64,000 bases of DNA from Candidatus Nomurabacteria bacterium (GTDB lineage: Bacteria > Patescibacteriota > Minisyncoccia > Phycocordibacterales > UBA9973), in contig CP064958.1 of the NCBI GenBank assembly GCA_016699085.1, forward strand, positions 196,141-260,140, given 5' to 3'. Below the pieces are notes generated by a model that worked only from the letters and a program-made list of their open reading frames with translations, was not told where the DNA came from and did no database searches. This document shows positions 3,301 to 58,651 of the stretch, piece by piece. Numbering within the stretch: the stretch's first letter is position 1; each line of letters starts with the position of its first letter. The translations under genes were made by a program, and so were the position numbers.

Positions 3301-3828
3301 AATATTCCAAATTGATTCAATAAAATCACTCTTGTAGGTGATGTACGGATTCTTGTGATCTACCCAATACCCGGATCGATCAGTAAATCGTTCCCATTCA
3401 TCGATATACTTCCACACACTTTCACGGCATTTATCATTGAATGCGGCAATACCGTACGATTCGATTTCTTTTTTGGATTTAAGTCCCAATTCTTTTTCGA
3501 CTTGGAGCTCAACAGGCAATCCATGCGTATCCCAGCCACCTTTCCTGCGCACATGGAATCCCCGCATTGTTTTGTACCGTGGAAATGCATCTTTGAAACA
3601 CCGAGGTTCTAGATGGTGAATACCAGGCTTGCCATTGGCTGTCGGCGGACCATCATAGAAAACAAACTCACCTTTTGGAGAATCTTTATCGAGCGATTTT
3701 TGGAAAATAGTATTATCTTTCCAAAACTGCAAAACAGCTTCTTCCCTGCCCGCCGTAGCAGATTTTTCTGCACTGGAGGGACGAAGCGCTGCATCTGATT
3801 TATCCCCTTGTTCATTATCCTCTAACAT
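346..3828 (-). CDS. ileS: Isoleucyl-tRNA synthetase (type 2-like) with an inserted histidine-phosphatase (PGAM-like) domain
   Basis: HIGH-type motif PPTANGKPGIHH, CP1 editing motif TTPWTLPGN, YPHCWRCKTALIY, WAISRERYWGTPLPIW, DVWFDSG, KMSKS. About 175 extra residues (aa ~505-680) carry RHGGTEGN and VTHGGP motifs between the WG-PLPIW and DVWFDSG blocks. Confidence 0.9.
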   Translation of the reverse strand: MLEDNEQGDKSDAALRPSSAEKSATAGREEAVLQFWKDNTIFQKSLDKDSPKGEFVFYDGPPTANGKPGIHHLEPRCFKDAFPRYKTMRGFHVRRKGGWDTHGLPVELQVEKELGLKSKKEIESYGIAAFNDKCRESVWKYIDEWERFTDRSGYWVDHKNPYITYKSDFIESIWNIVSKVNDKGLLYKDYKVVPWCPRCGTALSSHELAQGYQDDTDLSVTAKFKIVGTENGYFLAWTTTPWTLPGNVGLAVGKDVVYVEAKVGDEILVLAKERLSVIAEPYEIVAEHTGSEMVGMQYEPLYPYLQNLDAGDEKIVNAYKVYPADFVTTTDGTGIVHTAVMYGQEDFELGTKVGLPKFHLVDEAGHFIKGTDFLEGKFVKDEETAVDVIKDLAHRGLLFKKEKYTHSYPHCWRCKTALIYYARDSWYIRMSELRDTLVAENKKINWEPDHTKEGRFGEWIREVKDWAISRERYWGTPLPIWIADDGESLVVDSYETLKKYTKKSGNQYFVMRHGGTEGNIEGVISFKNQENDHLTVEGKKQVATTAQGLVDKRIDLIVSSPFIRTKETAEILREKLGLSNNQVIYIDELHEIDGGDFDGKNWDEYHQYILQKGKSWFDEKIPGGESLQDVGRRTGKVLYDLEKTYTNKNILIVTHGGPAWALFVNAGLFIPTNKEYQPANSHVFVQEFKRFDNAEVRDLPFVPLPHNENYELDPHRPFIDEIVLEHEGKEFRRVKEVMDVWFDSGAMPFAQDHYPFENKDFVEGPGYPADFISEAIDQTRGWFYTLLAVGVLMDRGTAYKNVICLGHILDKDGKKMSKSIGNVVDPWTVINKYGVDTLRLWMYSVNQPGESKNFDERTVGELQRQVFGLLYNILSFYELYRDTESEQRTVNSEQTKNVLDAWILARLDEVVGLTTEKMDVYKALEPVRAIRDFIGDLSTWYLRRSRDRIKDGDVDAKQTLYTVLKTLAQVMAPFAPFASEDIWQRLRHEADVESVHLSNWPEKAGEPNPVILQNMGIVRDLCTVGNALRKKANIPVRQPLAFFFVTEDLADEYKELIKDELNVKAVEKGPVIVFDERITPELKLEGEYREFVRAVQDLRKQAGLTPSDVIILTISPEAESLVTPFMNDFKKTVLAGEVMFADNNGQEVSIGEIIISINIE

Positions 3829-34195: not shown

Positions 34196-36673
34196 TTATA
34201 ATTTTGGACATGTTTCTTGAGTCCAAGTAGTGTAGAGTCCTTGTGTTATCTTGCCCCAAAGGCCATCAACTTTAGTTCCGAGAATTGTTTGAGCTGTCTT
34301 AATGCCACTAAGTGATTTTGGTCCAATAATACCATCAGTCACTAGTTCCGGAGTAGCTGCATCTAGTTGATTGACTGCCTTTTGTACCACCTTTGCATCT
34401 TCACCTTTGAGTCCAATTTTAACAAGTAAAACAGGAGTTCCAGCAACTTCACATCCAAGCGCAAAGTCACTAGGATCTATTTCATTATCATCGAGGGTAC
34501 TTGTACAACCTGGATCACTCGGATAATCCATCTTGCCATCACTATCATTATCTTGTCCATCACCGCAACTGTAGGAAATATAGTTACCACCGGAGCCAGC
34601 TGGAGGAGCTGGAGTTTCTTCAACAATTACTTCTTCATCAGCTTCATTATCATCATTACTATCGGTACAACCTGGATCATCTGCATCAATAATACTGTCA
34701 CCATCATTATCAACATCATCTCCGCACTGATAGGTTACAGTATTGCCTGTTGTAAAGGTTTGATCACTAGATGTTGCTATATTGCCACTTGCATCTGTTG
34801 ATATAAGTGAAACATAGTAAAGCGTACCTGGAGTAAGGCTCTGTAGTGTAACGGAATGACTAGTAACACGAGGTAATGTGTCACTCGTACCAGTCGTTAA
34901 ACCGTAACTTGTTGTAGTGCCATAGTTTACTAGCGTCGAAGCTAATTCATCAGTTGTCCAAGTGGCTACAGCCGTAGTATCCGTAGGGGAAATTGTAATA
35001 CTTGATATTACTGGAGCAGTGATATCTGGTGTATCTGGTGTCACTTCTGTATAACTAAAGCCTGCTGAACAACCAGAGACATTACCAGAACTATCAGTTG
35101 CCGTTGCTTTAAATGTTGTTGTTGAATTGTCTGCAACTGAGACTGTGAGACCTGGGGAGGCAAATTTATTTGACGTGCCGGAAATAACAACACTTTCGGC
35201 ACATGCGCTATCTGCGTATATTTTTACTGTTGTACCACTTGGTGCTGTTCCTTTTAGTTTTGGACTATTGTTGTTTGATCCAGAAATTGGATTAGCAGAA
35301 GTGATTGTTGGAGTTACCGGTAAAACAATAGCGAGTGTTGTAAAGAAATTATCCGACGAAGCCCCAATATTCCCTGCCGCATCTTTTGATTTTACAGAAA
35401 AATGGTACAGCGTATTGGCAGCTAGTCCGGTTATTGTCACGGTATGGTTAGTCACTTTGGGGGAAATATTTGTTTCGCTTGTCGAATTAGTATATGAGGT
35501 TGTTGTACCATAATCTACACTGGATGAAGATGCTTCATTAGTAGACCAGGTAATAGTTGCTGTCGTCTGGGTAGATGTAACACCGATTGAAGAAATAACT
35601 GGATCAGTAGTATCTGGTGTCACTTCTGTATAACTAAAGCCTGCTGAACAACCAGAGACATTACCAGAACTATCAGTTGCCGTTGCTTTAAATGTTGTTG
35701 TTGAATTGTCTGCAACTGAGACTGTGAGACCTGGGGAGGCGAAAGCTGCTGCAGTTCCAGAAGTAACCGCACTGCCAGTACAGCCAGCTGTTGTATAAAG
35801 TGCAACAGTCGTGCCTGAGTCAGCAGAGCCTAGAAGCTTCGGGCTTGTATTATTCGATCCAGAAATTGGATTTGAAGAAGTTATAGTAGGCGTGACTGGA
35901 GGAATTACAACAGCTGCGTCTGTTGTAAATGTATTATCTGAAGAAGTGCCTGTATTGCCACTTGCATCTTTTGACTTCACATCAAAATGATAGGCCGTAT
36001 TTTGCGTAAGCCCAGTAATCGTAACTGAATGTTGAGTTACCATTGGCAATACATCCTCTTCAGTTGTTGTTCCGTATGAAATTGTCCTACCATATTCAAC
36101 AATAGAAGAAGCATTTTCATTAGTATTCCAGGTTATTGTGGCAGATGTTTCACCAGGATCAACCGCAATTGAAGATATAACTGGATCAGTTGTATCTGGC
36201 ACTACAATATCACTTATAACTACGGTAATTGGATCACTCTGTTCTGATGTATTACCACTTGTATCTGTAGCACTAACCGCGAAGATATAGGTGCCAGCAG
36301 AAAGACCAGTAATTGTTGCTGTATTGGTTGTTACTGTTGCAACGACATTGCTTGTTTTATCATTAATGTTATTTTGATTTGCATTTGGAGTCAGTGCACT
36401 CTTAATACTGCCACCAAAATCAACAATACTATTAACAACAGTTGAGAATGTACTTTGTTGTTTTGGTCCCGGGCCCGTGGTCGTTTCATCAACCGGCGTT
36501 GGCCGCTGCCGCACCGGGGTATCAGAGACTGGAGATGGATCTGCATCAATAACTCTAGCTACCCCAGTAAAATTTTGATTACTGTGGGTGAGTATAAAAT
36601 AACCACCGCCAATAATAACAGCGAGAAGTAACACTATTTTTGCTGCGTTGTAGTTCGGATTAGAAAAATTCAT
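34196..36673 (-). CDS. Large secreted FN3-repeat protein with C-terminal peptidoglycan-binding domain
   Basis: N-terminal TM/signal segment. Repeated about 95-aa FN3-like units (ATITWNTNE...YGTTTSY...TVTITGL). C-terminal LVTDGIIGPKSLSGIKTAQTILGTKVDGLWG (PG_binding_1-like). Confidence 0.55.
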   Translation of the reverse strand: MNFSNPNYNAAKIVLLLAVIIGGGYFILTHSNQNFTGVARVIDADPSPVSDTPVRQRPTPVDETTTGPGPKQQSTFSTVVNSIVDFGGSIKSALTPNANQNNINDKTSNVVATVTTNTATITGLSAGTYIFAVSATDTSGNTSEQSDPITVVISDIVVPDTTDPVISSIAVDPGETSATITWNTNENASSIVEYGRTISYGTTTEEDVLPMVTQHSVTITGLTQNTAYHFDVKSKDASGNTGTSSDNTFTTDAAVVIPPVTPTITSSNPISGSNNTSPKLLGSADSGTTVALYTTAGCTGSAVTSGTAAAFASPGLTVSVADNSTTTFKATATDSSGNVSGCSAGFSYTEVTPDTTDPVISSIGVTSTQTTATITWSTNEASSSSVDYGTTTSYTNSTSETNISPKVTNHTVTITGLAANTLYHFSVKSKDAAGNIGASSDNFFTTLAIVLPVTPTITSANPISGSNNNSPKLKGTAPSGTTVKIYADSACAESVVISGTSNKFASPGLTVSVADNSTTTFKATATDSSGNVSGCSAGFSYTEVTPDTPDITAPVISSITISPTDTTAVATWTTDELASTLVNYGTTTSYGLTTGTSDTLPRVTSHSVTLQSLTPGTLYYVSLISTDASGNIATSSDQTFTTGNTVTYQCGDDVDNDGDSIIDADDPGCTDSNDDNEADEEVIVEETPAPPAGSGGNYISYSCGDGQDNDSDGKMDYPSDPGCTSTLDDNEIDPSDFALGCEVAGTPVLLVKIGLKGEDAKVVQKAVNQLDAATPELVTDGIIGPKSLSGIKTAQTILGTKVDGLWGKITQGLYTTWTQETCPKL
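35030..35739. repeat. Intragenic direct repeat: 131 bp identical at 35030-35160 and 35609-35739 (period about 579 bp)
   Basis: Both copies of GTATCTGGTGTCACTTCTGTATAACTAAAGCCTGCTGAACAACCAGAGAC...GAGACCTGGGGAGGC can be read directly in the sequence. Confidence 0.85.
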
Positions 36674-36744
36674 ATTGGTTTTAATTTTAACATACTAATA
36701 CGATTAAGTTAATTACTACTCGATGCATAACATTCCATGTACAG

Positions 36745-39561
36745 TTAATTTAAAATTTTTGTAATATTACTATAGCTTTGTGGGCAACCACCTACAATAA
36801 CATCAGTATATAGTTTTGAAAAAATATCCGGAATAATCTCATCAGCATGCCCTACTTTATGACCCGTATCAGGCCAATGGGTAAATGTTGATGGAATAAC
36901 AGTCATAATCTGATCAAAAGCACTTTTAACCAATGTGTAGTCAAGTGTAGCATCATCTTCACCATGATAATCATGCATTGGTCCATCGTTCGCATCAAGA
37001 AATGTATTAAGCATTGTCATAGTCACACCTCCTGGATGTCCAGCAGCAGAACAAATCCATGATGGTTCACTCATATTACTCAAACTCACTCGCGCATCGC
37101 TTGTAATCGCTACATTATTCATGTTATTACCAAGCATATCAGCCGTAAATGAAGTAAGTCCACCTGCCGAGGTACCTGTTGCCACAATTCGATTTTTATC
37201 AAAATTATAAAGTCCAGCATTCGCGCGAGCCCATCGCACCGCAGCTGCAAGATCGGTGCCTGCTAAAATTTGATTGGCATTATTAAAATTACCGCCACCT
37301 GCACCTCGATAGTTTATCGATGCACATGCCCAACCTCGCATGGTGAAATCCTTGCACCAACCACTGTCAGCCTTATCTCCCCCGCCACCATGTAGATTAA
37401 ATGCAAGTGGTAATCGTTCGTTGGATTCATTTGGTGGTAAATATAAATCAAGTTTTAAATCAGAATTATCATTATCTGGAGCTGATGCGTATTGAATATT
37501 AGCTATTTTAGTTACCTCTGCAAATTCATATATTTCATTACAATAACGAATTGACCCGGTATCATTAGTATTACTTGTTACACAATTTGTCGATCCTCCT
37601 ATTCCTACATCATTTTGCCCTTCTTCATTGCCGTCTTCATCAATAATCTGATACACCGTATACTCTTCTATCTCACCACTATTATCTATTGATGGATCCC
37701 ATGTAAGTGTCACGCTAGATGGTGACTGTTCGGTTACTTCAATATCTGTAGGTGGAGTCGGTGGAACTTTATCTTCAATTGATAGCTCTTCACTATCTAG
37801 GCCTTCGATCCTGGTAATACTAAATGGCCTGAGCACTACAGCACTTGTACCGGAAAAAGAAACCGAATCCCCATCAATAATTGGAGTAAAGGCATCGGTA
37901 TTGCGCTCATCGGCACGTCCGTATGTAGAAGAGAGTTTTTGTCCATAGACTTCAGTCAGTGTAATATTCGCACCCGGATCGTTTATTGCCACACCGTCAA
38001 ATGAAATTGCTGAAAGCGGAATACTTTTATTTGACCAGTTAAATATAAAGTAGAGATTTTCACCACTATTTAAATCCGTAAATCCATAAAGTTGCGCCTG
38101 ACCGATCGGTACATCAGCTGGGAAAGTTGGCACCACATCGAGCACATCATGGAATCCGTCGAAGACTGGTTTTATAAGTTTATAAGTAAGACCTACTGCA
38201 TTTAATTTAAGTGCATTTTTTGTGTAATATGAACCATACAGTTCGTCAACAGGAATGGTACTGTCATTGGTATTTGGTTTTGTTTTCGAGACAAGATTTT
38301 TTAAACTACCACTAAAACTCATAAGTGAAGCGCTTTTTACCGCATTGTTGTGGTCATCATTAAATTCAGCGATTTTAAATAGCATTTCTCCCATAGTTGC
38401 AGCATTTGCGAACGTATTCTCAAATGCAGCCGTTGAAAATTCAGGATTGATAGTACTTTGATCATAATTATTTATATTGATCTGCGTGGCACGAAATCCG
38501 CGAGCTGGTCCGAAGTACGAGGTATATGCATCGAGTACATTGGGCACATGCACGTCGAGCATTTCACGTGCACGGTCTCGAAAGCAGGCAAATATATCAA
38601 ATCCTGTCACCTCAGGATTATTGACTGGATCACATACCTCGTCAGTATTTACAAATCCATCGGTCCACAAATACGCACCAATGTCTAGTTTGTCGATATC
38701 AGCAAACGCAGTCCGGATTGCAGCATTCCAATTCGAACTTACACCATAGTCAGCCTGATTTGGATTAGGCACTACTGTGTGAAGTTGAATACGGATATCA
38801 GGATAGTTCTGTTGAATTGCGAGTGCGATTGGATGAACACGAGCAATGAAATGATCAACGTCAGGAAATGCAACTTGGCCGTTTTCTCGTGATGGAGCAT
38901 TGGGGCCACATTCAGAACAAAGCTGGACTCCCTCCACGACAATTCCTTGATCAATAAGTCCCTGGATAGCAGAGAGGCTCTCACTAATTGCAAGATTGAT
39001 ACTTGCCGAATCAACAGGCACTGGTGCTGTCAAACCAACCGCACTTTGTGTAACAACGTTCAAACTATACGTCACCACTGGACGGCGAATATTTTGGGCG
39101 AGATCAATGTATTTATCATAGAAGCGAGTAAACGGATTCCCATTGCTACCATTAAATGTGGTTGAGTAAGACATTTCCGTATCCTTAGTGCCATCGCTAT
39201 TCCAAAATTCGTTTTCTTCAAAAATAAGTCCCATACCTGGTCCGTCGTGGTGAGCGTAGTTAGAAGTTACGCCTGGATGGATACGGAGCATGTTAATACC
39301 AGTATCAGAAAAAATCTTTCGGATATCAGTATTGGAAGTATCAAAAAGCGTGCCCGCGCCCGTATCAAATCCAGTAGAGAGGAGTGACGGCAATACTGCA
39401 CCTTCTTCAATTGGACCTCCAAGATCAATCACCTGAGCACGGTTAAAAAAATTCCTTATACTAGTGTTGAAAACTATAAAAATCCCAAGAGCAACAACAG
39501 CAAGAACTAGTAAAGTAAACTTGATGGCATCGTTATGATGATTTTTTAAAAAGGTAAGCAT
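36745..39561 (-). CDS. Secreted multidomain protein: N-terminal TM anchor, glycoside-hydrolase-like barrel region, FN3, C-terminal alpha/beta-hydrolase (esterase)
   Basis: C-terminal LAFNLHGGGGDKADSGW...YRGAGGG...GTSAGGLTS (HGGG oxyanion and GxSxG). FN3 TDIEVTEQSPSSVTLTWDPSIDNSGEIEEYTVYQ. Start trimmed to MLTFLKN to avoid overlap with the upstream paralog. Confidence 0.5.
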   Translation of the reverse strand: MLTFLKNHHNDAIKFTLLVLAVVALGIFIVFNTSIRNFFNRAQVIDLGGPIEEGAVLPSLLSTGFDTGAGTLFDTSNTDIRKIFSDTGINMLRIHPGVTSNYAHHDGPGMGLIFEENEFWNSDGTKDTEMSYSTTFNGSNGNPFTRFYDKYIDLAQNIRRPVVTYSLNVVTQSAVGLTAPVPVDSASINLAISESLSAIQGLIDQGIVVEGVQLCSECGPNAPSRENGQVAFPDVDHFIARVHPIALAIQQNYPDIRIQLHTVVPNPNQADYGVSSNWNAAIRTAFADIDKLDIGAYLWTDGFVNTDEVCDPVNNPEVTGFDIFACFRDRAREMLDVHVPNVLDAYTSYFGPARGFRATQININNYDQSTINPEFSTAAFENTFANAATMGEMLFKIAEFNDDHNNAVKSASLMSFSGSLKNLVSKTKPNTNDSTIPVDELYGSYYTKNALKLNAVGLTYKLIKPVFDGFHDVLDVVPTFPADVPIGQAQLYGFTDLNSGENLYFIFNWSNKSIPLSAISFDGVAINDPGANITLTEVYGQKLSSTYGRADERNTDAFTPIIDGDSVSFSGTSAVVLRPFSITRIEGLDSEELSIEDKVPPTPPTDIEVTEQSPSSVTLTWDPSIDNSGEIEEYTVYQIIDEDGNEEGQNDVGIGGSTNCVTSNTNDTGSIRYCNEIYEFAEVTKIANIQYASAPDNDNSDLKLDLYLPPNESNERLPLAFNLHGGGGDKADSGWCKDFTMRGWACASINYRGAGGGNFNNANQILAGTDLAAAVRWARANAGLYNFDKNRIVATGTSAGGLTSFTADMLGNNMNNVAITSDARVSLSNMSEPSWICSAAGHPGGVTMTMLNTFLDANDGPMHDYHGEDDATLDYTLVKSAFDQIMTVIPSTFTHWPDTGHKVGHADEIIPDIFSKLYTDVIVGGCPQSYSNITKILN

Positions 39562-39613
39562 GTATTGATAGTATAGCAGTTTCTTATTTTTTTTCGCTAT
39601 AGCAACGCTTGTC

Positions 39614-40783
39614 CTAGTCAATAATATGGGAAAGATTGCTATAACTTTGAGGACAGCTCTCAACTATAAGTTCTTTGTATGCAGTGGGTATCACTATTTT
39701 ATCCATTGCAGCATCTTCTCCTAGTCCATGCCCTGAATCATCAAAACATTTGAAATAACTTGGGATACCAAAGCTTTGCATAATTCCAAGCGCTTCATCA
39801 CCATCATCATTTTGTGAATCATCTGGATCTGAACAGTGCCAACCATGAGTCGTATCTTCACCTCCCAAGAAAAACACAGATGGCGGATCATTGGCATCAA
39901 TATAGTCATAAGCAAAAGGTGCAAGTGGTCCAGACGTACTCGTCACCATACAACTCCATGATGGGACAATACTACTTTGATACATTTGGTTATCTCTGTT
40001 AACTAGTGCATCACTTGATGGGTAAAAAGATGCATCATTAGCCGTAGCCGCAGCGAGCATCGAAGTGATTCCTCCAGCAGAAGTCCCCGCTAGTAGTATT
40101 TTATTTGGGTCAATGCCATATTCACTAGCATGAATTCGGGCAAATCGTATAAGTGCAAGCATATCTGAGGCTGCATGCTTCTGCTCTGACATGGTAAAAC
40201 CCATATTTGTGTGATCAGTTCGATAGTCACCTGAGATGCAAACATAGCCAAGACGGGCAGCTTCATTGCATGGCGCTGCTCCACCTTCAGCTTCTCCTCC
40301 ACCTCCATGCATAAATATTTTAAGTGGACGGTTAGTTACAATATCGGAAAGCGGTGGTGTATACAGATCAAAACTCAAATTATAAGTTTCTGAAAACTCT
40401 CTTGAAATTGGATCTGGTATCTCTGATTGGTCAAAAATCTCATTGCAGTAGCGGAGTGTACCTGGAGTACCAGCCACATCTGGATCACAAATTGGAATTT
40501 CCTCTTCATCTTCGCCAGTAATTTGGTATACCGTATATTCTGCTACATCACCACTATCATCGGATGAAGGATCCCATGAGAGAGTGGCTGATGATGACGT
40601 TGTTGATTGAACAGCAAGATTGGTAGGGATGGATGGTGCAATCAAATCAATCACCTGAGCTGGATTAAAATTATTCCTAAGATTCGTATTAAAAACGATA
40701 AAAACTCCAAGCGCAATAATGGCAACTATAAAGAAAAAGAGTTTAACGACATCGTATTGGGGATTTCGTAGAAAATAAAACAT
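39614..40783 (-). CDS. Secreted FN3 plus alpha/beta-hydrolase (esterase), paralog of the 3' half of 36745-39561
   Basis: Shares the N-terminal anchor (LGVFIVFNTNLRNNFNPAQVIDL), the FN3 (ATLSWDPSSDDSGDVAEYTVYQ), HGGGGEAEGG, GTSAGGITS and the C-terminal CPQSYSN motif with the larger neighbour. Confidence 0.55.
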   Translation of the reverse strand: MFYFLRNPQYDVVKLFFFIVAIIALGVFIVFNTNLRNNFNPAQVIDLIAPSIPTNLAVQSTTSSSATLSWDPSSDDSGDVAEYTVYQITGEDEEEIPICDPDVAGTPGTLRYCNEIFDQSEIPDPISREFSETYNLSFDLYTPPLSDIVTNRPLKIFMHGGGGEAEGGAAPCNEAARLGYVCISGDYRTDHTNMGFTMSEQKHAASDMLALIRFARIHASEYGIDPNKILLAGTSAGGITSMLAAATANDASFYPSSDALVNRDNQMYQSSIVPSWSCMVTSTSGPLAPFAYDYIDANDPPSVFFLGGEDTTHGWHCSDPDDSQNDDGDEALGIMQSFGIPSYFKCFDDSGHGLGEDAAMDKIVIPTAYKELIVESCPQSYSNLSHIID

Positions 40784-42340: not shown

Positions 42341-43555
42341 ATGAGCAAATCTTCAAAAAATTTTTCTATAGCATTTTCTTTTGTCGTAATAATACTTACG
42401 CTTTTTGGTATATCACAAACGAGCTTTGCAGCGACTACACAAGCAAAACCATTTGAAGTCACCGGCTGGATTCCCTACTGGAGTATAACTGCAGGCACAA
42501 CCGTAGCAAATAAAAATTTAACTACTTTAACCTCGATATTTCCTTTCGGCTACGGTGTCAACACTGACGGCACCCTTACTGATCTCGCCAAACTCGCTAC
42601 ATCACCTACCTGGGCAAGTCTTAAGATTAATGCCAAGGCTAAACAAGTAAAGTTCATCCCAACTATTACCTGGACTGATGGTACGGCAATCAATCAAATC
42701 CTTTCTGATAAAACCCTTCGAACAAAACATATCGATACTATTGTTTCAATGGTAGAAAATGGCAAATTTGATGGTGTCGATATTGACTATGAGAAGAAGT
42801 TAGCTATAACCAAAGATAACTTCTCTGCGTTTCTAACGGAGCTCAAAACAAAACTTGGCAGTAAAACTCTCGTATGCTCGATCGAAGCACGCACGCCGCT
42901 ATCTTCACTATATCGTGTCATTCCAACAAACATCCAATACGCCAATGACTACAAAGCTATCGGCAAAGCATGCGACAGAGTCGCCATACTCGCCTATGAT
43001 CAAGGCCGCGCAGATTTCGTTTTGAATAATGCCAAAGCTGGCGCACCATATAATCCGATCGCTGATGCTGAGTGGGTAAGAAAAGTAGCAATGCTTGCGA
43101 GTGAATCAATTCCAAAAGAGAAAATTCTTCTCGGTGTTCCAACGTACGGATTTAACTATGAAGTAACGATCGCACCGAACTGGTTCAAGGGTTACAAAAA
43201 GGTCTCTTCTGCTACCGCTTCCTACGCTACTAAAACTGCAACACTCTTTGGCATCACCCCTACTCGCAATAAATCCGGCGAGATGAGTTACTCATTTGCT
43301 TCTGGATCTACACCAAAAGAAGTCGCGACTTATAAGCTACCAAGCACGCTCACCACTGATACCTTTGCCAACCGTGCACTCGCCTATGCTAATGCTACTG
43401 GCAAAACGTTTACCTTTAACACTGTCTGGTGGAGTGATGCTGATGCTATCAAACAGAAAGTAACTCTCGCCAAAGAATTAGGCCTCGCTGGTATCTCTCT
43501 ATTTAAAATCGACGGCAATGAAGATCCAAATATCTGGACTATGCTTGCAAAATAA
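42341..43555 (+). CDS. Secreted glycoside hydrolase family 18-like protein (YaaH/YdhD-type peptidoglycan or chitin hydrolase)
   Basis: Signal peptide. DGVDIDYEKK in the position of the GH18 catalytic motif DGxDxDWE. C-terminal ...[18 protein letters not shown] typical of this subgroup. Confidence 0.55.
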   Translation: MSKSSKNFSIAFSFVVIILTLFGISQTSFAATTQAKPFEVTGWIPYWSITAGTTVANKNLTTLTSIFPFGYGVNTDGTLTDLAKLATSPTWASLKINAKAKQVKFIPTITWTDGTAINQILSDKTLRTKHIDTIVSMVENGKFDGVDIDYEKKLAITKDNFSAFLTELKTKLGSKTLVCSIEARTPLSSLYRVIPTNIQYANDYKAIGKACDRVAILAYDQGRADFVLNNAKAGAPYNPIADAEWVRKVAMLASESIPKEKILLGVPTYGFNYEVTIAPNWFKGYKKVSSATASYATKTATLFGITPTRNKSGEMSYSFASGSTPKEVATYKLPSTLTTDTFANRALAYANATGKTFTFNTVWWSDADAIKQKVTLAKELGLAGISLFKIDGNEDPNIWTMLAK

Positions 43556-44159: not shown

Positions 44160-44229
44160 GGGATGCCTATTGAGATTTCCCGCGACTCAAAGTTCGTCGC
44201 CACTCATTTTAGTCTAGATACCAGCTCGT
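44160..44229. repeat. Repeat B copy 1: degenerate tRNA-His 3'-end fragment plus 51-bp conserved box
   Basis: GGGATGCCTATTGAGATTT followed by CCCGCGACTCAAAGTTCGTCGCCACTCATTTTAGTCTAGATACCAGCTCGT. The box is identical to 49945-49995. Confidence 0.8.
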
Positions 44230-44247
44230 TTATTTCTGTATTGAAAA

Positions 44248-45504
44248 TTATTTGTTGTTTATAATATCTTCGATTTCCATAAGTCTATTATATTTGCAGA
44301 CTCTCTCAGCACGAACAAGTGATCCCGACTTAATATAGTCACTGGCAAGTCCAACTGCAAGATCGGCAATAAACGTATCTGTCGTGTCACCGGATCGATG
44401 GGATACAAACGGAGACCAGCCCTGCTTTTTTGTCAGCTGAATCGCCTCTATAGTTTCAGTCAACGTGCCAATTTGATTTGGTTTGATAAGCACAGCATTG
44501 ATCGCCTGTTTGTCGATAGCAACTTGTATTCTTTTACTATTTGTCACCGTGAGATCGTCGCCAACGATTTTTATCTTGTCGCCCAATCTTTTTCTCATTT
44601 CGACAAAACCCTCCCAGTCGTCCTCTGCTAGACCATCCTCGATAGAAATAATTGGATGTCTTTCGATCAATTCCTCATACCAATCAATTACTTGATTGGT
44701 TGTTCTATCTGCGCTTTCTCCTGCAATTTTCAATCGGTATATACCATTCTTATAGAAACTCGATGCAGCCGCGTCTATTGCGATCTTAACCTGGTCTAAT
44801 GTGTAGTTAGCAGCTACAATCGCCTCTTCAATAAGTTCCAATGCCTCTTCAGAGGTTGTGAGTCTTGGCGCAAAACCACCTTCGTCGCCGACACTTGTTG
44901 TATAACCCTTAGATTTCAATATCTTTTTCAATGACAAAATGATTTCCCCCGTAGCTTGCACTTTCCGACGGAAAGAATCAAAACCAATGGGAGCAAGCAT
45001 GAATTCCTGAATATCTAAGCCACTATCAGCATGCTTGCCACCATTAATAACATTAAACATTGGTTGTGGAAGTTTAAAGGTCATGGTACTCCCCAGTCCC
45101 CCCAAATATTCGTACAGCTCAACCTTTTGCTCTTCTGCACAAGCACGGGCAAAAGCCAAGGAGACTCCGAGAAGTGCATTTGCACCGAGGCGTGATTTGT
45201 TTTCCGTACCATCTCGCTGAATTAGAGCCATATCGAGACTAGTCTGATCAAAGTCTTTATCTTTGATAGACTCATAAATTTCTGTATTTACATTTTCGAT
45301 AGCTCTAAGTACGCCGAGTCCTCCGTATCTGCTCTGATCGTGATCACGCAATTCAAGAACCTCATGAACTCCAGTACTTGCTCCGGAGGGGACAGATGCC
45401 TTTGCCATCACACCACCGCGCGAGAGTGTACAGCAAACCTCTAACGTTGGATTGCCACGGGAATCGATAATCTCTTTTGCTGTAACTGATTGTATCTTTG
45501 CCAT
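44248..45504 (-). CDS. eno: Enolase
   Basis: MAKIQSVTAKEIIDSRGNPTLEV and full-length enolase signature regions. Confidence 0.93.
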   Translation of the reverse strand: MAKIQSVTAKEIIDSRGNPTLEVCCTLSRGGVMAKASVPSGASTGVHEVLELRDHDQSRYGGLGVLRAIENVNTEIYESIKDKDFDQTSLDMALIQRDGTENKSRLGANALLGVSLAFARACAEEQKVELYEYLGGLGSTMTFKLPQPMFNVINGGKHADSGLDIQEFMLAPIGFDSFRRKVQATGEIILSLKKILKSKGYTTSVGDEGGFAPRLTTSEEALELIEEAIVAANYTLDQVKIAIDAAASSFYKNGIYRLKIAGESADRTTNQVIDWYEELIERHPIISIEDGLAEDDWEGFVEMRKRLGDKIKIVGDDLTVTNSKRIQVAIDKQAINAVLIKPNQIGTLTETIEAIQLTKKQGWSPFVSHRSGDTTDTFIADLAVGLASDYIKSGSLVRAERVCKYNRLMEIEDIINNK

Positions 45505-45505
45505 A

Positions 45506-46318
45506 TTATATGCTTTTCAGTTGGTTAAAAGTGACACTACCAGAGAGATGTTTCTCTGCTTCAATAATAATTTTCTCCATCATTATTACCGCTTCGACTG
45601 GATACTTACCTTTTGCTGTTTCGTCCGAAAGCATAACTGCATCAGCACCCTCGAGTATGGCAGTAGCCACATCGGTCACTTCCGCCCGAGACGGTGTAAG
45701 GTTTTCTACCATAGAAAGAAGCATCTGGGTAGCGACGATGACAGGTTTGCCTGCTTTTCGTGCTTTTTTGATTATCCGATCTTGTATAAACGGTATCTGT
45801 TCGAGAGGCACCTCATTGCCGAGATCGCCACGGGCTATCATAACAGCATCAGCTTCGGCAATAATCTGTTCGAGTGACAGAAGTGCTATAGCTCTTTCTA
45901 TTTTTGCTATTACCATCTGCCTACCTCCAAAACCATGCACCAATCCTCTACATTTTTTTATATCCTCCGGACCAGCGACGAAAGAAACAGCTACGTAGTC
46001 AACAGCATGAAGAGCAGCAAATTTTATGAACTCCTCATCATTGCTCGTAATCGATGAGAGCGCTCGAGAGTCATACGTATGACTCTCATTTTCCTGGACC
46101 CGAGGACCAGGTAAGTCGATGATAATCGGAATTCGCCGACCACATTCTTTTTCGAGTTGTCGTATAAAAGTGATTTGTTCTGCCCATAAGGCGAGATCGC
46201 CCCAGGAAAAGTTAAGTCTCACCACATCTAGCTGGTGACTCACCATCGCCCTTAGGATGTCTGCTTTTTCTGACACCGGACCGAGTGTGACTACAATTTG
46301 TGCTTTGGAATTTGTCAT
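45506..46318 (-). CDS. pyk: Minimal pyruvate kinase (A-domain barrel only; B lid and C-terminal domains absent)
   Basis: KAQIVVTLGP, VRLNFSWG, MIARGDLG, ATQMLLSM, MLSDETAKGKYP. Only 270 aa. The B-domain position is filled by a short linker. Confidence 0.65.
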   Translation of the reverse strand: MTNSKAQIVVTLGPVSEKADILRAMVSHQLDVVRLNFSWGDLALWAEQITFIRQLEKECGRRIPIIIDLPGPRVQENESHTYDSRALSSITSNDEEFIKFAALHAVDYVAVSFVAGPEDIKKCRGLVHGFGGRQMVIAKIERAIALLSLEQIIAEADAVMIARGDLGNEVPLEQIPFIQDRIIKKARKAGKPVIVATQMLLSMVENLTPSRAEVTDVATAILEGADAVMLSDETAKGKYPVEAVIMMEKIIIEAEKHLSGSVTFNQLKSI

Positions 46319-46947
46319 GAGGGTACTTGTGATTCAGTCTGGCGAATCTCCTTGTGTATCATATGGCCAGTCTCGTCAATATCATAAATAAGAATCGAGC
46401 CAAAGGGTATCTCGATATCTGCTATATTCTCGTCGGAAATGTTCTCAATATATTTGACGAGCGTGCGAAGTGAATTACCATGCGCTACGACCAGTATATT
46501 TTTATTTTCCATAACTCGTGGCAAGATTTTTTCTAAAAAATAAGGGACCGCGCGATCATAGACCATCTTAAGCGATTCGCCATTGGGTATGGGATATTCC
46601 CAGCCTCGTCGGAGTTTCTTAAATTCTTCTTCGCCGAGAATCTTCTCCATTTCCCATTTATTCTTTCCTGTATAGTCACCATAATCGCGTTCATTCAAAG
46701 CGGCAGCGTGTTCCGTTGGTACTTTGTATCGCTTACATACATTGAGCATGCATGAAAGTGTCTCAATAGAACGTACGAGCATCGAAGCAAAGGCATAGTC
46801 GATCTCGATATCCTGTATGAGGGATCCCATATCTTCGGATTTATTGAATCCATATTGGTCCAAATGGCGATCACGCAAACCCGTCCATTTGCCGAGCTTG
46901 TTCCATTCTGATTCGTGATGTCGTACCAAGAGAAGTTTGCTTGTCAT
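46315..46947 (-). CDS. gpmA: 2,3-bisphosphoglycerate-dependent phosphoglycerate mutase (histidine phosphatase family)
   Basis: LLLVRHHESEWN (RHG-type variant) and VVAHGNSLR second-His motif. Confidence 0.8.
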   Translation of the reverse strand: MTSKLLLVRHHESEWNKLGKWTGLRDRHLDQYGFNKSEDMGSLIQDIEIDYAFASMLVRSIETLSCMLNVCKRYKVPTEHAAALNERDYGDYTGKNKWEMEKILGEEEFKKLRRGWEYPIPNGESLKMVYDRAVPYFLEKILPRVMENKNILVVAHGNSLRTLVKYIENISDENIADIEIPFGSILIYDIDETGHMIHKEIRQTESQVPS

Positions 46948-46950
46948 AGT

Positions 46951-47925
46951 TTAAGGATTAACAATATTCTCTGGAGTTCTGCCTTCAAAGAAGCTAATAA
47001 TATTGCGAGCTACAATTTCAGCCATCTGGTTTCGAGCCCCAATACTTGCGGAGGCGATATGTGGAGTCAGAATAATATTTTGTAATCTGAGAAGTCCCGG
47101 AACGGTTTTGGGTTCAAATTCGAAAACATCGAGAGCTGCACCGCTAATACTTTTTTCTCTCAAAGCCACCTCAAGAGCCTTCTCATCAATAATTGGACCA
47201 CGTGAAGTATTGATGAGAAAAGCAGATGGTTTCATAAGTCGAAGGCGTGCTTCATTTATCAGATGCCTTGTCGAATCAAGGAGTGGTACATGCAGACTCG
47301 TGACATCCGCCTGGGGTAAAAGCGTCTCAATTGTACTACAGTATGTCGCACCACATTCTTTTTCGATACGATCATTTCTAGCCACGTCAGTGTAGATAAT
47401 TTTCATACCAAGACCCTTAGCGTAATAAGCAACTCTCTCACCGATCCGACCGGCCCCAACAAGACCAAGTGTGCTCCCAAGAATGTCTGTACCGATAAAC
47501 TGCATCGGCGCCCAGCCTTTATACTTTCCTCGCCTGACAAACTCATCAGCTTCGACAATCCTCGCCGCAAGAGCAAGCATGAGAGCTATTGTGTGTTCTG
47601 CAACAGCTTCAGTGGAGAGAGGAGTGGGGGCATTTGTTACTGTTATTCCAAGTTTTTTTGCTTCTGTCACATCTATATTGTCGAAACCAGTAGCATAGTT
47701 GGCATATAGCTTTATATTTGGCACATGATGAAACACCTTTGCGTCTATACTGTCAGTCAAAAGGACGAGTACGGCATCATATGGTTTCTTTTTCAAAAAT
47801 GAAATGAGTTTTTTTTGAGAAAGTGGAGAATCGTTTGGATTGATATCCACCGTATATCCTTTTTGCTTCAGCATATTAATTCCAATATTAGGAATTTGTC
47901 GAGTTACAAAAATATTCTTTGACAT
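46951..47925 (-). CDS. D-isomer-specific 2-hydroxyacid dehydrogenase (glycerate dehydrogenase/hydroxypyruvate reductase-like)
   Basis: GLVGAGRIG NAD-binding loop and conserved catalytic R/E/H layout. Confidence 0.8.
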   Translation of the reverse strand: MSKNIFVTRQIPNIGINMLKQKGYTVDINPNDSPLSQKKLISFLKKKPYDAVLVLLTDSIDAKVFHHVPNIKLYANYATGFDNIDVTEAKKLGITVTNAPTPLSTEAVAEHTIALMLALAARIVEADEFVRRGKYKGWAPMQFIGTDILGSTLGLVGAGRIGERVAYYAKGLGMKIIYTDVARNDRIEKECGATYCSTIETLLPQADVTSLHVPLLDSTRHLINEARLRLMKPSAFLINTSRGPIIDEKALEVALREKSISGAALDVFEFEPKTVPGLLRLQNIILTPHIASASIGARNQMAEIVARNIISFFEGRTPENIVNP

Positions 47926-48012
47926 ACCTATATCTTAGCAGGTATCTACACAAATTGCTGACTTACACAAGGGAAGCTAGTAAATGGTATTGTGTTTTCC
48001 TAAAGAAACAAT

Positions 48013-48083
48013 CTGCACTGTTCAAATCTGAGCGCGAGTGAACCATTTCACTCGCTTATTCACCACTCGCCTTGCTCGTGGGT
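48013..48083. repeat. Repeat A copy 1 (71 bp, contains a 9-bp perfect inverted repeat; ends in GGGT)
   Basis: CTGCACTGTTCAAATCTGAGCGCGAGTGAACCATTTCACTCGCTTATTCACCACTCGCCTTGCTCGTGGGT. Identical except one base to 50021-50091. Confidence 0.85.
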
Positions 48084-48319
48084 CCTTCCAAATTAAAATT
48101 AAGAACCATATTCCGATAAAGCCAATAGTACCAGGGTTTAGGGTTTCCAGAAATGGCAAATCTAATGGTACCACAGGGACAATAGGCCGAATACTGTATT
48201 GGCATAGAGTTGAAAATGACCTGTATACCCTTTCGAATATTATGAAGGAGTATATGGGAAAGGTGCAGAAGAAGACTGATAAGACTGACTTCTTTTCACA
48301 GTTTGATGAACCTGTTTAG

Positions 48320-48468
48320 GATTGATGTCTGGGAAGCAAGATTTGCTGATGCTATCAAGCAGAAAGTAACTCTCGCTAAAGAATTAGGCCTTGCAGGCAT
48401 TTCTCTATTTAAAATAGATGGCAATGAAGATCCAAATATTTGGACTATGCTTTCTACTGCAAAGTAAA
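48320..48468 (+). pseudogene. Decayed duplicate of the 3' end of a GH18 gene (paralog of the 3' end of 42341-43555)
   Basis: Translates in frame to [48 protein letters not shown]. About 88% nucleotide identity to 43436-43555. No upstream ORF continuity. Confidence 0.7.
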
Positions 48469-48493
48469 TAGATTATATTTTTGTCGAATTTTT

Positions 48494-49873
48494 TCATATA
48501 TATTTCTCTATCAACTCACTCAATTTACCACTGGCAAGCATTACTCCAATTTCATCATCGATAAGATTTTTTAGTGAGAGATCGTCTTTCTTGAAAACAA
48601 AAGTGTTTTCATATATGCGAATAGGGTCGCTTGTTGCTTGAACCAATTTTTTCTGTTTTGTTTTTGTAAAAATTTCCATCAGATTAATTTCTGCAAATGT
48701 CATATCTCCCTTTCCGTCAGTAACAAACTGTAGTAACTCTTGCGGGTCTGAAAGCTGCGGCACAAACACTAGTCGTGCATTTGGAAAATCAGCTTTTGCG
48801 ATCGAATGAGATATATCGTTTTCTTTTACCACCACTCTCAATTCGGGGCTGTTCTTTAGTTTTTCATATTCAATGCCTGGCAATGTCCATGGATATGCAT
48901 TACTCGTGTATATAGATTTTGAAAAAGATGCTTTCTCCTTTCGTTCAGGCGTCGGCCAAACAGTACTTCCAAATAAGTCAAAACGATTATGGTCCAAACC
49001 ATCGATCACAACACCATATCCAGTTTCTTCACTCCACTTGATCTGCCATTCATGCTTCTTTGCTATAGCAGTAATAATCTCATAGAAAATACCCGAGAAA
49101 GTGTCGGTTTCGTGATTATAAAATAGTGCAGGTGGATAATTGGTGAAAGCTACACGTAGCGTCTTTGTCTTTTCTACGCGATCAAGAGCGGAAGTATAAC
49201 TTCCATTCTCATTATCTTCATCGCCCCACACAGAACGATACGTCTCCCAAGGATTTTCCATCAGCAGAAAATCGACACTATCTTTTGACTTTCCGTCGTA
49301 CTTTCCTGCGATATAGTTTTCATAGACCGGCCAGTTTTTGTGATAAATGTAGACCACTTTTTCAGCACCTAAAAACCCCGGCGCAAAATCAAGAAACGCG
49401 AATTCTGATAGTAAGTAGTGAACTGCTGTTTTTACCGCAACAGCTACATCTGCGATTTCTTTCTTCGATCCTGTAATAACACCTTTTGTGGTCTCATTCG
49501 CATCGTACTCAAACTGTTTGTTTGATTCGTATAGCTGTCGAATATACTCATAGGACTTTTTATAATTCTCATTTGGCTCTATTTCATTTTCCCAATCTAT
49601 GATTCTCACTTGGTCTTTTGTATATCCAAGTTGGACGACGGCTCGCTCAGTTCTATTCTTCAGGAGATTTCCTTGTGGCAGGGCCTTATCGCGCCGCGCG
49701 CGATTTTCAGGATATCCAAGGGCAATATAAGTCGAGATAGCGGGAATATCAGCGATCATAACAGCAACTTTTCCATAGCGGTCAATGGCCGTCTTGAGGA
49801 GGTATTTAATCTCTTCATCCTTGAAGTAGCTATTGCCGGGACTCATACCGATGATTGGATATATATTCTGCAT
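48494..49873 (-). CDS. Cyclodipeptide synthase (tRNA-dependent CDPS) fused to a C-terminal SBP_bac_3-like (type-2 periplasmic-binding-fold) domain
   Basis: N-half: IIGMSPGNSYFKDEEIKYLL (CDPS catalytic-Ser motif, as in GISPFNSRFS/ISAGNSYFS), NRTERAV, HYLLSEFAFL (Y-x3-E catalytic pair), YHKNWP. C-half: LRVAFTNYPP...GIFYEIITAIAK...ERKEKASFSKSIYTS aligns along its length with GlnH-type solute-binding proteins. No TM or signal segment. Confidence 0.7.
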   Translation of the reverse strand: MQNIYPIIGMSPGNSYFKDEEIKYLLKTAIDRYGKVAVMIADIPAISTYIALGYPENRARRDKALPQGNLLKNRTERAVVQLGYTKDQVRIIDWENEIEPNENYKKSYEYIRQLYESNKQFEYDANETTKGVITGSKKEIADVAVAVKTAVHYLLSEFAFLDFAPGFLGAEKVVYIYHKNWPVYENYIAGKYDGKSKDSVDFLLMENPWETYRSVWGDEDNENGSYTSALDRVEKTKTLRVAFTNYPPALFYNHETDTFSGIFYEIITAIAKKHEWQIKWSEETGYGVVIDGLDHNRFDLFGSTVWPTPERKEKASFSKSIYTSNAYPWTLPGIEYEKLKNSPELRVVVKENDISHSIAKADFPNARLVFVPQLSDPQELLQFVTDGKGDMTFAEINLMEIFTKTKQKKLVQATSDPIRIYENTFVFKKDDLSLKNLIDDEIGVMLASGKLSELIEKYI

Positions 49874-49925
49874 ATTTTTAATTCACGTTGTTTTAGTGAT
49901 TACTTAAACTCATTTAGTTTTGATT

Positions 49926-49995
49926 GGGTGCCTATCGGGATTTTCCCGCGACTCAAAGTTCGTCGCCACTCATTTTAGTCTAGATACCAGCTCGT
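49926..49995. repeat. Repeat B copy 2: exact 18-nt tRNA-His 3'-end copy plus conserved box
   Basis: GGGTGCCTATCGGGATTT is identical to the tRNA-His 3' end at 50088-50105. It is followed by the same box as at 44179-44229. Confidence 0.85.
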
Positions 49996-50020
49996 CATTT
50001 TTTCTGCTGAAAAAATATTA

Positions 50021-50091
50021 CTGCACTTTTCAAATCTGAGCGCGAGTGAACCATTTCACTCGCTTATTCACCACTCGCCTTGCTCGTGGGT
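50021..50091. repeat. Repeat A copy 2, abutting and overlapping the last 4 nt of tRNA-His
   Basis: Same 71-bp sequence as 48013-48083. Its final GGGT is the tRNA-His 3' terminus. Confidence 0.85.
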
Positions 50092-50161
50092 GCCTATCGG
50101 GATTTGAACCCGAACTGAGAGTTCCACAAACTCTAGTGCTAACCATTACACTATAGGCACC
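50088..50161 (-). tRNA. tRNA-His (GTG) with encoded G-1
   Basis: Minus-sense GGTGCCTATAGTGTAATGGTTAGCACTAGAGTTTGTGGAACTCTCAGTTCGGGTTCAAATCCCGATAGGCACCC. Cloverleaf fits with anticodon loop TTGTGGA. Confidence 0.85.
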
Positions 50162-58504: not shown

Positions 58505-58651
58505 ATATATTCATACTTTCATGGTCACAACTCTCGATTCGCCGTCGCTCATCTCGGTCACGACCCTGCCTCGCGGTTTTATCTGCTGATAAAACATCGT
58601 TCCGGCTCACAAAGCCGCAAAATTGCCATGCAATTTTAAAATTCGGCTTTG

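Follow-up and report, generated by a model that had tools for sequence, protein, structure and literature searches.

Our comparative analyses show that two pairs of repeats in a 64,000-nucleotide stretch of the genome of a Candidatus Nomurabacteria bacterium (contig CP064958.1, positions 196,141 to 260,140; hereafter the window), which a preliminary description had interpreted as nested attachment (att) sites around a block of glycolytic genes, belong to a single element located immediately downstream of tRNA genes. The two repeats, A and B, and an adjoining copy of the 3' end of tRNA-His form one contiguous element of ~150 nt, of which A is the 5' half and B the 3' half. The window is likely to hold one intact member of this family, behind tRNA-His (A2 and B2), and one split member (A1 and B1), the halves of which are separated by a glycolytic operon. 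The element apparently represents an undescribed, abundant and structured family that trails the tRNA genes of Patescibacteria. This anatomy of the locus is well supported and largely replaces the att-site interpretation.

The unity of A and B is evident from other genomes. A scan for the pattern of the hairpin contained in A (hp1), carried out on one genome per species, yielded at least 120 loci. Among the matches listed, 56 of the 124 hairpins that we read had an antisense copy of a tRNA T-arm downstream, and many others (Chthonomonadales, Armatimonadota) corresponded to an unrelated simple repeat. In blastn comparisons of the window unit with these loci, A continued through B in L010, L017 (several copies), L032, L058, L101 and others (L-numbers are the labels of the contigs and loci compared), and the element is contiguous in dozens of other genomes. 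Because A runs straight into B elsewhere, A2-B2 is the native contiguous form and A1...B1 the interrupted one. A and B can thus no longer be considered as two repeat families or as att arms. The “empty” 150-bp and “filled” 3.9-kb units distinguished in the preliminary description both exist, the empty one being the native form and the filled one the exception. Of the three origins that it had offered, a family of intergenic repeat elements was the correct one, rather than a recombination cassette or repeated integration and excision.

Read in the sense of the tRNA, the unit begins after a tRNA or transfer-messenger RNA (tmRNA) gene with a spacer of 14-60 nt, often containing a terminator-like hairpin, and continues with the reverse complement of the acceptor 3' strand (anti-acceptor segment), which covers the discriminator and the next base. 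Then come the 9-bp hairpin hp1, the reverse complement of the T-stem 3' strand and T-loop (anti-T segment), a helix P3 carrying a variable hairpin hp2, a helix P4 (GCCCAGAC...GUCGAGGG) carrying a variable hairpin hp3 and, lastly, a direct copy of the last 14-19 nt of the tRNA. This direct copy pairs back to the antisense segments and closes the fold, a three-way junction with invariant joining nucleotides. The antisense origin of the anti-T segment is proven in the window, since its ATTTGAA complements the unusual T-loop TTCAAAT of tRNA-His. The duplicated tRNA end, previously regarded as the scar of an integration event, is therefore the integral 3' closing strand of each unit; it occurs behind many different tRNAs, always in a version that fits the local one, and is not by itself a scar here. 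In 24 units at other loci, the last 14 nt of the tRNA were repeated with at most two mismatches within the 8-kb locus, the distance from tRNA end to repeat end being 120-390 nt.

The units are modular. One type of 5' module is combined with four 3' domains (alpha, beta, gamma and delta), and the 3' domain occurs alone in the tRNA-Arg/tRNA-Val spacer of the window. Tandem arrays were seen in L099, L091, L102 and L022, the latter with three units of two 3'-domain types behind tRNA-Gln (positions 300-1120), and up to five copies lie within 7.7 kb in L017. In L085 (3342-7400), the 5' module (hp1 and the antisense T-arm) stands alone behind tRNA-Gly, and an HlyD/ABC/FtsX (MacAB-like) operon starts one base further on; neither the 3' half nor the direct repeat was found within 4.5 kb. 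In L029 (1-520 and 6650-6916), related to L022, the contig ends join parts of the unit to inverted copies of a ~190-nt flank, with breakpoints exactly at the spacer AAAAAAGAGTGTAGCGATTTTTT, that is, a rearrangement at the unit boundary. L022 and L029 have a unit that is 98% identical between them; we considered and rejected two independent insertions, the flank being common to both; no near-identical units at unrelated sites were found. Spacers devoid of a terminator hairpin (CGAACGAAGTGAGTGAGCCGAAGA in L058; CGAGCAAGGCGAGTGGTGAATAA in the window, at 50064-50087 and 48056-48079) carry a degenerate direct copy of the hp1 5' arm, also present in L044, L102 and L109, which could form an alternative hairpin with the hp1 3' arm. 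A scan of viral contigs for hp1 gave 0 matches, as did a metagenome scan for the window-type A pattern.

The association with tRNA genes was seen both in the hairpin loci and in an unbiased set. Most of the 60 hairpin loci searched for tRNAs (mostly from Patescibacteria) had a tRNA or tmRNA gene on the same strand 14-60 nt upstream. The tRNA identities served include His, Gln, Gly, Arg, Pro, Lys, Tyr, Ser, Met, Asp, Asn, Trp, Thr, Val and Leu, in addition to the tmRNA in L089. We also assembled an unbiased set of 80 loci from one Patescibacteria clade, retrieved through homologues of the PduO-type gene that adjoins tRNA-His; many of the longer loci examined had the tRNA order of the window, Ser-Arg-Val-Leu-His. 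An antisense T-arm copy was present within 160 nt downstream of 30 of the 142 tRNAs of this set (1 in the control) and a direct repeat behind 16 (1 in the control). A covariance model (R1), built from an alignment of 10 units with that of the window included, had 20 matches in this set, 18 of them directly 3' of a same-strand tRNA, and the terminal arms matched the local tRNA and not a family consensus. These are not the dispersed copies with consensus ends of a generic REP- or MITE-like element. The preliminary description had stated that copies at dozens of unrelated intergenic sites would speak against it; copies are numerous, and essentially all of them are at tRNA 3' ends.

Within the PduO set, units occupy the orthologous tRNA-His, Arg, Val and Leu sites in a patchy manner, and the flanks have diverged too far for empty sites to be defined. 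The tRNA-His gene is followed by a unit in L165, L158, L198 and L157 and lacks one in L204, L159, L131 and L210; L190 keeps only the terminator and the anti-acceptor segment, and L191 (10686-10760) a leftover unit 3' end with the direct repeat of another tRNA-His allele, of the L165/L158 type. Orthologous units nevertheless persist where the neighbouring PduO protein is only ~50% identical. The DNA behind tRNA-His is a hotspot of rearrangement in this clade, and an inverted tRNA-His-like 3' end was also observed after the unit in L165 (10850-10900).

The sequences downstream of the tRNAs share a conserved fold. RNAalifold predicted 42 base pairs from the 10-unit alignment, 23 of them with compensatory changes, and R1 retrieved 100 matches in 71 of the loci. 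In an alignment of 32 units, 93.9% of the cells were paired (70.8% in shuffles), changes on both sides had occurred at 39 of the 42 pairs, and the covariation score was 0.606, against 0.196 for shuffled alignments and at most 0.12 with slid partners; this alignment was fitted to the model, so that these figures lean towards structure. A model-free alignment of the orthologous tRNA-His units of L165 and L158 shows invariant junction nucleotides, and the stems of hp1, hp2, hp3 and P4 have been rewritten through many compensatory changes. In minimum free energy folds of single units, L158, L032, L097 and L066 formed hp1, the two hairpin domains and the closing stem; L017 gave a similar fold with a weaker closing stem, and in L069 the closing stem was not recovered. 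The apparent sequence invariance of hp1, which might have indicated protein binding or spread by transfer, proved to be an ascertainment artefact of the exact-pattern scan, since hp1 is variable in the unbiased set and remains paired through compensatory changes. The fold is thus conserved and tied to tRNA 3' ends; hairpins of single-stranded DNA would give the same covariation signal.

The window contains three members of the family: the intact unit, the split His-type unit and a degenerate one between tRNA-Arg and tRNA-Val (Table 1). All the repeats of the preliminary description are present, displaced by no more than 1-3 nt from the positions given there. The two A copies exist where it had placed them, with the 9-bp inverted repeat GCGAGTGAA-N4-TTCACTCGC (48034-48055 and 50042-50063) and the 4-nt overlap of the second copy (50021-50091) with the tRNA-His 3' end; they are identical at 70 of 71 positions (63 exact, one mismatch, 7 exact). 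The B box is also real, but its exact block has 54 nt instead of 51 (44176-44229 and 49942-49995). Likewise, the supposed 25-nt spacer between A2 and B2 shrinks to a non-similar stretch of ~7 nt, as ~90% similarity extends beyond the B block up to 44247/50013, and the exact copy of the tRNA-His end, although real, spans 19 nt instead of 18 (50087-50105 repeated at 49925-49943). The degenerate copy recognized at 44160-44178 (15/19) is significant, with no comparable match in 500 shuffles. Cores of 40 nt taken from A and from B occur exactly twice each in the window, with 0 expected from 100 shuffles. Among the Logan contigs, L003, from another sample, spans eno, B1, the tRNA fragment and CYTH and is identical to the window, and L001, L002, L004 and L005 end inside A or B, as expected of true repeats.

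R1 aligned to the intact unit with 126 bits (49925-50075, E=2.5e-35), a score partly circular because this sequence is among the 10 from which the model was built; the independent evidence is provided by the matches elsewhere. Folded as a single sequence, the unit reaches -46.7 kcal/mol (z -2.4) with the closing stem included, and the helix between its antisense arm and the tRNA-end copy has two mismatches. The preliminary description had overlooked three features: the left flank of A1, which retains only ACCCA of tRNA-His, with no significant remnant beyond it in a shuffle test; the 111-nt copy of a GH18 gene end; and the third, degenerate unit. The latter has kept the 3' domain (P3/hp2 and P4/hp3) and lost hp1, the anti-T segment and the direct repeat, and the same position next to tRNA-Arg carries units in the relatives L165, L204 and L131.

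Table 1. Coordinates in the window of the three tRNA-trailing units and of associated features.
Feature	Position	Strand	Basis or content
tRNA-His (GUG)	50088..50160	-	ARAGORN; Rfam tRNA 63 bits; last 19 nt and one base beyond repeated at 49925-49943
Intact tRNA-trailing unit (A2, B2 and fragment)	49925..50087	-	Covariance model R1, full length
Intact unit: spacer with degenerate anti-acceptor GGUGAAUA	50065-50072	-	
Intact unit: hp1	50042-50063	-	
Intact unit: anti-T segment GCUCAGAUUUGAA	50029-50041	-	
Intact unit: P3/hp2	about 49989-50028	-	
Intact unit: P4/hp3	about 49947-49988	-	
Intact unit: direct copy of tRNA-His 3' end	49925-49943	-	
A1, 5' half of second His-type unit	48004..48083	-	70/71 to A2 (48013-48083 vs 50021-50091); R1 match; spacer, hp1 (48034-48055), anti-T, P3 5' strand, hp2 5' strand UUGUUUCU; ACCCA before it
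Cargo in hp2 loop of split unit, preceded by ~80-nt leader	44248..48003	-	Pfam
2-hydroxyacid/D-glycerate dehydrogenase	46951-47925	-	Pfam
Phosphoglycerate-mutase-like His_Phos_1 protein (gpmA)	46315-46947	-	Pfam
Short pyruvate kinase (pyk)	45506-46318	-	Pfam
Enolase (eno)	44248-45504	-	Pfam
B1, 3' half of split unit	44160..44247	-	hp2 3' strand AGAAAUAA, P3', P4/hp3, degenerate tRNA-His 3'-end copy (44160-44178)
Third, degenerate unit, spacer tRNA-Arg(UCU)-tRNA-Val(UAC)	58506..58643	-	R1 48 bits, E=1.5e-12
Cyclodipeptide synthase with C-terminal periplasmic solute-binding SBP_bac_3 domain	48494..49873	-	Pfam PF16715, PF00497
Duplicated GH18 3' end (last 37 codons, 111 nt)	48344..48454	+	92% nucleotide identity to 42341-43555; tblastn 36/37 amino acids

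The split unit shows where the operon is located with respect to the fold. R1 recognizes A1 at 47991-48067 (36.6 bits) by skipping 85 internal model positions, and B1 at 44175-44259 (model positions 46-135, 35.6 bits), the latter starting immediately 3' of the eno stop codon. On the A1 side the junction reads ...GUGCAG-A-UUGUUUCU up to the boundary and UUAGGAAAAC... beyond it; on the B1 side, after the enolase stop, it reads UUUUCAAUAC up to the boundary and AGAAAUAA-ACGAGCUGG beyond it. The two separated hp2 strands remain complementary, and the boundaries of the cargo coincide with the apical loop of hp2. The 3.8-kb dehydrogenase-gpmA-pyk-eno operon is conserved in relatives with ~75% protein identity; no half-units were found beside it in L128/L129 and L130, where it occurs in other contexts. 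Its GC content (0.42-0.44), slightly higher than that of its neighbours (0.36-0.41), equals that of other parts of the window, and the 44-50 kb region presents no marked anomaly of composition. It is an ordinary housekeeping operon and not the usual cargo of an island. Its pyruvate kinase has only 270 amino acids, covering positions 171-328 of the 328 of the Pfam PK barrel, a short form (267 amino acids) that is conserved in L128, L129 and L130.

How the two His-type copies came to coexist can be approached through L031, from the same species, which shares 97% nucleotide identity with the window over 3.47 kb of the operon. Its layout consists of GGCACCC (the tRNA-His end), A, the hp2 5' strand and the same operon, and the contig ends right at the tRNA-end junction. 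As the filled copy is common to L031 and the window, it predates the divergence of the strains. The two copies in the window are 99-100% identical to each other in both A and B, and the A of L031 is only ~87% identical to A1 or A2, a value that might, as a rough estimate, reflect neutral divergence at 97% genome identity. The tRNA-end copies of the split unit have decayed, to ACCCA at its left side and to 15 matches in 19 positions at its right side. We infer that the second His-type unit would have arisen as a tandem or nearby duplicate, comparable to the tandem arrays seen elsewhere, that the operon and, separately, the segment encoding the cyclodipeptide synthase (CDPS) would have been put in later through ordinary rearrangement, and that the homologous halves would then have been homogenised via gene conversion or recently copied. 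The simplest reading is that of an old second copy kept similar to the intact one via gene conversion, with the caution that the history of the duplication in the window genome is based on two genomes only.

A possible but rather improbable alternative to this duplication history is that donor DNA from a sibling strain, circular or linear and carrying A, B, the fragment, the CDPS gene and the GH18 3' end, crossed over in Campbell fashion through the 71-nt A with a chromosome of the type tRNA-His-A-operon-B, generating two direct copies of A and of B. The order in the window (tRNA-His, A2, B2, fragment, CDPS, GH18 3' fragment, 260 nt, ACCCA, A1, operon, B1, second fragment, CYTH, GH18) is that of a single-crossover product, and the reduction of the A1 left flank to ACCCA, the duplication of the GH18 3' end at 92% identity, and the 99% identity of A1 and A2 against ~87% with the A of the other strain all fit such an event. 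However, the donor allele that it predicts, tRNA-His-A-B-CDPS-GH18, was not found and look-ups of the exact CDPS protein failed, the L031 contig also breaks at the tRNA end beside A, an indication that two copies may have existed for longer than the identity of A1 and A2 suggests, and the 260 nt at 48084-48343 are left unexplained.

With regard to the mode of action, our preferred although still tentative reading is that the unit is a structured RNA, encoded on the tRNA strand and included in the tRNA transcript. It would be transcribed with the tRNA and fold into the structure supported by covariation, the tRNA-derived closing helix would serve as a handle for excision or stabilisation, and the split copy would then be a disrupted gene. 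In favour of an RNA are the constant orientation of the units relative to the tRNA, the position of one unit within the tRNA-Arg/tRNA-Val spacer, the excess of G-U/U-G (38) over A-C/C-A (20) in the tRNA sense, the better folding of the window unit in this sense (-46.7 vs -38.9 kcal/mol) and the RNA-family-like pattern of evolution seen between L165 and L158.

Several observations weigh against this RNA reading. The predominance of G-U is modest, and it was counted on related sequences aligned with a model that favours G-U. Many units have terminator-like hairpins on both sides and leave no room for a promoter, which argues against simple co-transcription; scans for promoter and terminator consensus sequences did not rise above chance. 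The closing helix includes the discriminator and the next base and is thus not a faithful mimic of a tRNA acceptor, and in L165, L098 and L122 the antisense arm fits the upstream tRNA better than the direct repeat of its own unit, so that the closing stem (P1) is not always maintained. A pure RNA-gene model also fails to explain why the arms of each copy match its own tRNA. Finally, some traits resemble those of mobile or integrative DNA. The direct repeats begin inside the T-loop, a tmRNA serves as target in L089, units are arrayed in tandem in L099, L022 and L102, orthologous tRNA sites are patchily occupied, and one rearrangement (L029) falls exactly at a unit boundary.

It is accordingly quite conceivable that the unit is a non-autonomous DNA element targeting the segment of tRNA genes from the T-loop to the 3' end. 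The RNA and DNA readings are not mutually exclusive, and neither of them explains the presence of both sense and antisense copies of the tRNA end in each unit; the arms could possibly be matched to the tRNA through hairpin-templated correction of a long palindrome that has the spacer at its centre.

Two specific forms of a DNA element can be weighed against these data. An unlikely one is a hairpin-dependent non-autonomous transposable element of PATE/REP type, comparable to those related to IS200/IS605, in which hp1 would be bound in trans and the antisense arms would pick the tRNA 3' end, the operon-bearing copy having captured host DNA or been disrupted. Its guide-hairpin-guide layout beside a matched target would resemble guide-plus-hairpin ends, stem covariation is also known from REP-like single-stranded DNA hairpins, and the high copy number (as in L017), the rearrangement at a unit boundary and the G-U and A-C counts, which are not extremely different, agree with it. 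So does the shuffling of modules, with the alpha-delta 3' domains, the 5' module alone in L085 and the 3' domain alone in the Arg unit of the window. By contrast, neither an HUH nor any other transposase was detected among the 55 open reading frames scanned in the window, near-identical copies at unrelated sites were not found (L022 and L029 share their flank), orthologous units persist at ~50% PduO protein identity, IS200/IS605 elements are not known to make direct repeats of 14-19 nt, and retargeting would entail changing ~19 nt of guide together with the direct repeat.

Even less convincing is classical integration at tRNA-His, the interpretation closest to the preliminary description, with A and B as the attL- and attR-proximal arm regions, a tyrosine integrase encoded elsewhere and acting in trans, A1...B1 as a 3.9-kb glycolytic island and A2-B2 as an integrase-less remnant mobilisable in cis. 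The direct repeats are indeed copies of tRNA 3' ends starting in the T-loop, reportedly the typical sublocation for tRNA-targeting integrases, and they are usually trailed by what appears to be the original terminator of the tRNA gene. A tmRNA is a further target (L089), tandem arrays exist, occupancy is patchy among orthologous tRNAs and L191 retains a direct repeat from a different tRNA-His allele. Nonetheless, as the preliminary description had noted, the window contains no integrase: Pfam searches of 55 of the 57 open reading frames of at least 110 amino acids in these 64 kb detected no integrase, resolvase, transposase or HUH protein. Neither did any unit examined encode a recombinase, most of them (120-390 nt) being too short to do so. 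Moreover, the cargo is a conserved housekeeping operon of native composition that lies centrally within the element, in the loop of a hairpin, and not between two att arms, the interior is constrained by covariation and has invariant junctions, unlike the arm sites of integrases, and nothing in known attP sites corresponds to the antisense target copy with hp1 set into it. Units with ends of their own exist for at least 15 tRNA identities, which would require one integrase specificity per identity.

More speculatively, and with considerable doubt, the units might constitute an undescribed class of programmable, base-pairing-guided elements specific for tRNA and tmRNA genes, occupying perhaps a fifth of tRNA genes if the one clade sampled (30 of 142) is a guide. 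Their antisense arms would select the last ~19 nt, an insertion chemistry would make or maintain the direct repeat, and the hp2 loop would tolerate or accept cargo, whether as mobile DNA or RNA or as an RNA sensing tRNA 3' ends. Lastly, an assembly artefact joining two strain variants (empty unit with CDPS, filled unit with CYTH) through repeats short enough to mislead an assembler is highly improbable: short-read Logan contigs do end inside A and B and the GH18 3' fragment looks like a second copy of the same flank, but the source sequence is an 808-kb contig, all pieces occur in one sample (SRR11674009), the B1 tRNA fragment is degenerate despite the identity of B itself, the GH18 fragment (111 nt, 92%, followed by unrelated sequence) and the A1 left flank (no tRNA body) are not simple allelic copies, and the biology of the family does not depend on the assembly of the window.

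Other identities were considered and discarded. A tmRNA, in one or two pieces, was suggested by the motif GGAAUCGAA and the tRNA-like ends; the motif is the reverse complement of the T-loop of the neighbouring tRNA, ARAGORN did not detect a tmRNA, and each upstream gene encodes a complete, ordinary tRNA. A chargeable mimic of an acceptor minihelix, possibly linked to the CDPS, was downgraded given that pairing of the antisense arm extends over the discriminator and the base after it, that this arm complements the 3' strand rather than copying the 5' strand, and that the helix in the window has two mismatches. Group I introns do not apply, as the tRNAs here are intact; tRNA introns of Patescibacteria sit in the anticodon loop (PMC13011429). 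The lengths and sequences of the junction, compared by eye on the RNAalifold structure, do not fit a hammerhead-like three-way junction. An analogy with the bridge RNA of IS110 or the omega-RNA of TnpB was rejected too, both arms pairing contiguously to the same strand and no such protein being encoded nearby.

The genes around the units, as identified with Pfam, encode GH18, CYTH, enolase, short pyruvate kinase, a His_Phos_1 mutase, a D-2-hydroxyacid dehydrogenase, the CDPS-SBP_bac_3 fusion and a PduO-type adenosyltransferase. The dehydrogenase has an identical counterpart among the proteins of a Candidatus Nomurabacteria assembly. The CDPS gene lies between the intact and the split units, outside the repeat element, and starts ~50 nt after the tRNA-His unit; look-ups of its exact protein sequence with two alternative start codons found neither on record. 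No GH18 pseudogene was found upstream of the 111-nt fragment, and the 260 nt between this fragment and A1 did not match anything tested. Further away, the gene at 346-3828 (minus strand) encodes a class I tRNA synthetase, IleRS-like by its domain content, with an inserted His_Phos_1 domain, as in L128 and L129. The tandem DNA repeats at 25.8-26.6 kb and 34.9-36.2 kb are coding and belong to Kelch-repeat and fibronectin-III/BD-FAE proteins (25725-27452 and 34196-39663), unrelated to the element.

Patescibacteria have tiny genomes, and yet about one in five tRNA genes in the sampled clade bears the element or a part of it. If the units act as RNA, they represent a new and abundant class of non-coding RNA tied to tRNA transcription units; if they act as DNA, a tRNA-targeting element without a recombinase of its own, with arms copied from its target. 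In practical terms, a duplicated tRNA 3' end beside a tRNA gene should not be taken, in these genomes, for the scar of a prophage or island, and the units lead to contig breaks in short-read assemblies.

We did not find any description of this tRNA-trailing element in the literature, and none of the 4227 models of Rfam 15, at the gathering threshold or at E<=10, corresponds to the units of the window, L158 and L058, where only the tRNAs match, together with chance terminator matches. As for integrons, the Pfam scans of the window (55 of 57 open reading frames) showed no integrase, and attI or the R''/L''-L'/R' boxes (GTTRRRY core) were not searched for. REP/BIME sequences, the PATEs of IS200/IS605 and MITEs are, like our units, short, non-coding, multi-copy and hairpin-rich, with compensated stems and ends in inverted repeat; unlike them, the units are confined to tRNA 3' ends, their arms copy the local target instead of a consensus, the direct repeats are long, the junction is complex and conserved, and no transposase has been identified. 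The spacers of stable-RNA operons share the location (tRNA-Arg-unit-tRNA-Val) and the joining of 5' and 3' ends in a long helix, as in an RNase III stalk, whereas the units have a self-contained conserved fold with no known mature product, are often insulated by terminator-like hairpins, and occupy about a fifth of the sampled tRNA genes, patchily among orthologous sites.

The tRNA-like handles of non-tRNA RNAs (the mascRNA at the MALAT1 3' end, the t-elements of plant mitochondria, the tRNA domain of tmRNA) offer another parallel, since there an acceptor/T-stem helix closes or ends the RNA, and the units, which adjoin tRNA genes, could by analogy use tRNA-processing enzymes. In our case, however, the helix consists of exact inverted and direct copies of the 3' end of the neighbouring tRNA, with the discriminator and the next base, and does not form a T-loop fold; neither ARAGORN nor the Rfam models for tRNA, tmRNA and mascRNA match it. 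The islands integrated at tRNA and tmRNA genes resemble the family in their insertion directly 3' of an intact tRNA or tmRNA, the direct repeat of the last 14-19 nt from the T-loop, the tandem arrays and the variable downstream region. Of the hallmarks of tRNA-targeting integrative elements, the units have the direct repeat and the intact tRNA and lack the integrase, in the window as in all units examined, and foreign cargo. Unlike such islands, most of them measure 120-390 nt, their antisense target copy is split by a hairpin, their interior is a covarying three-way junction, and a single structural family serves at least 15 tRNA identities, its sole case of cargo being a housekeeping operon set in a hairpin loop.

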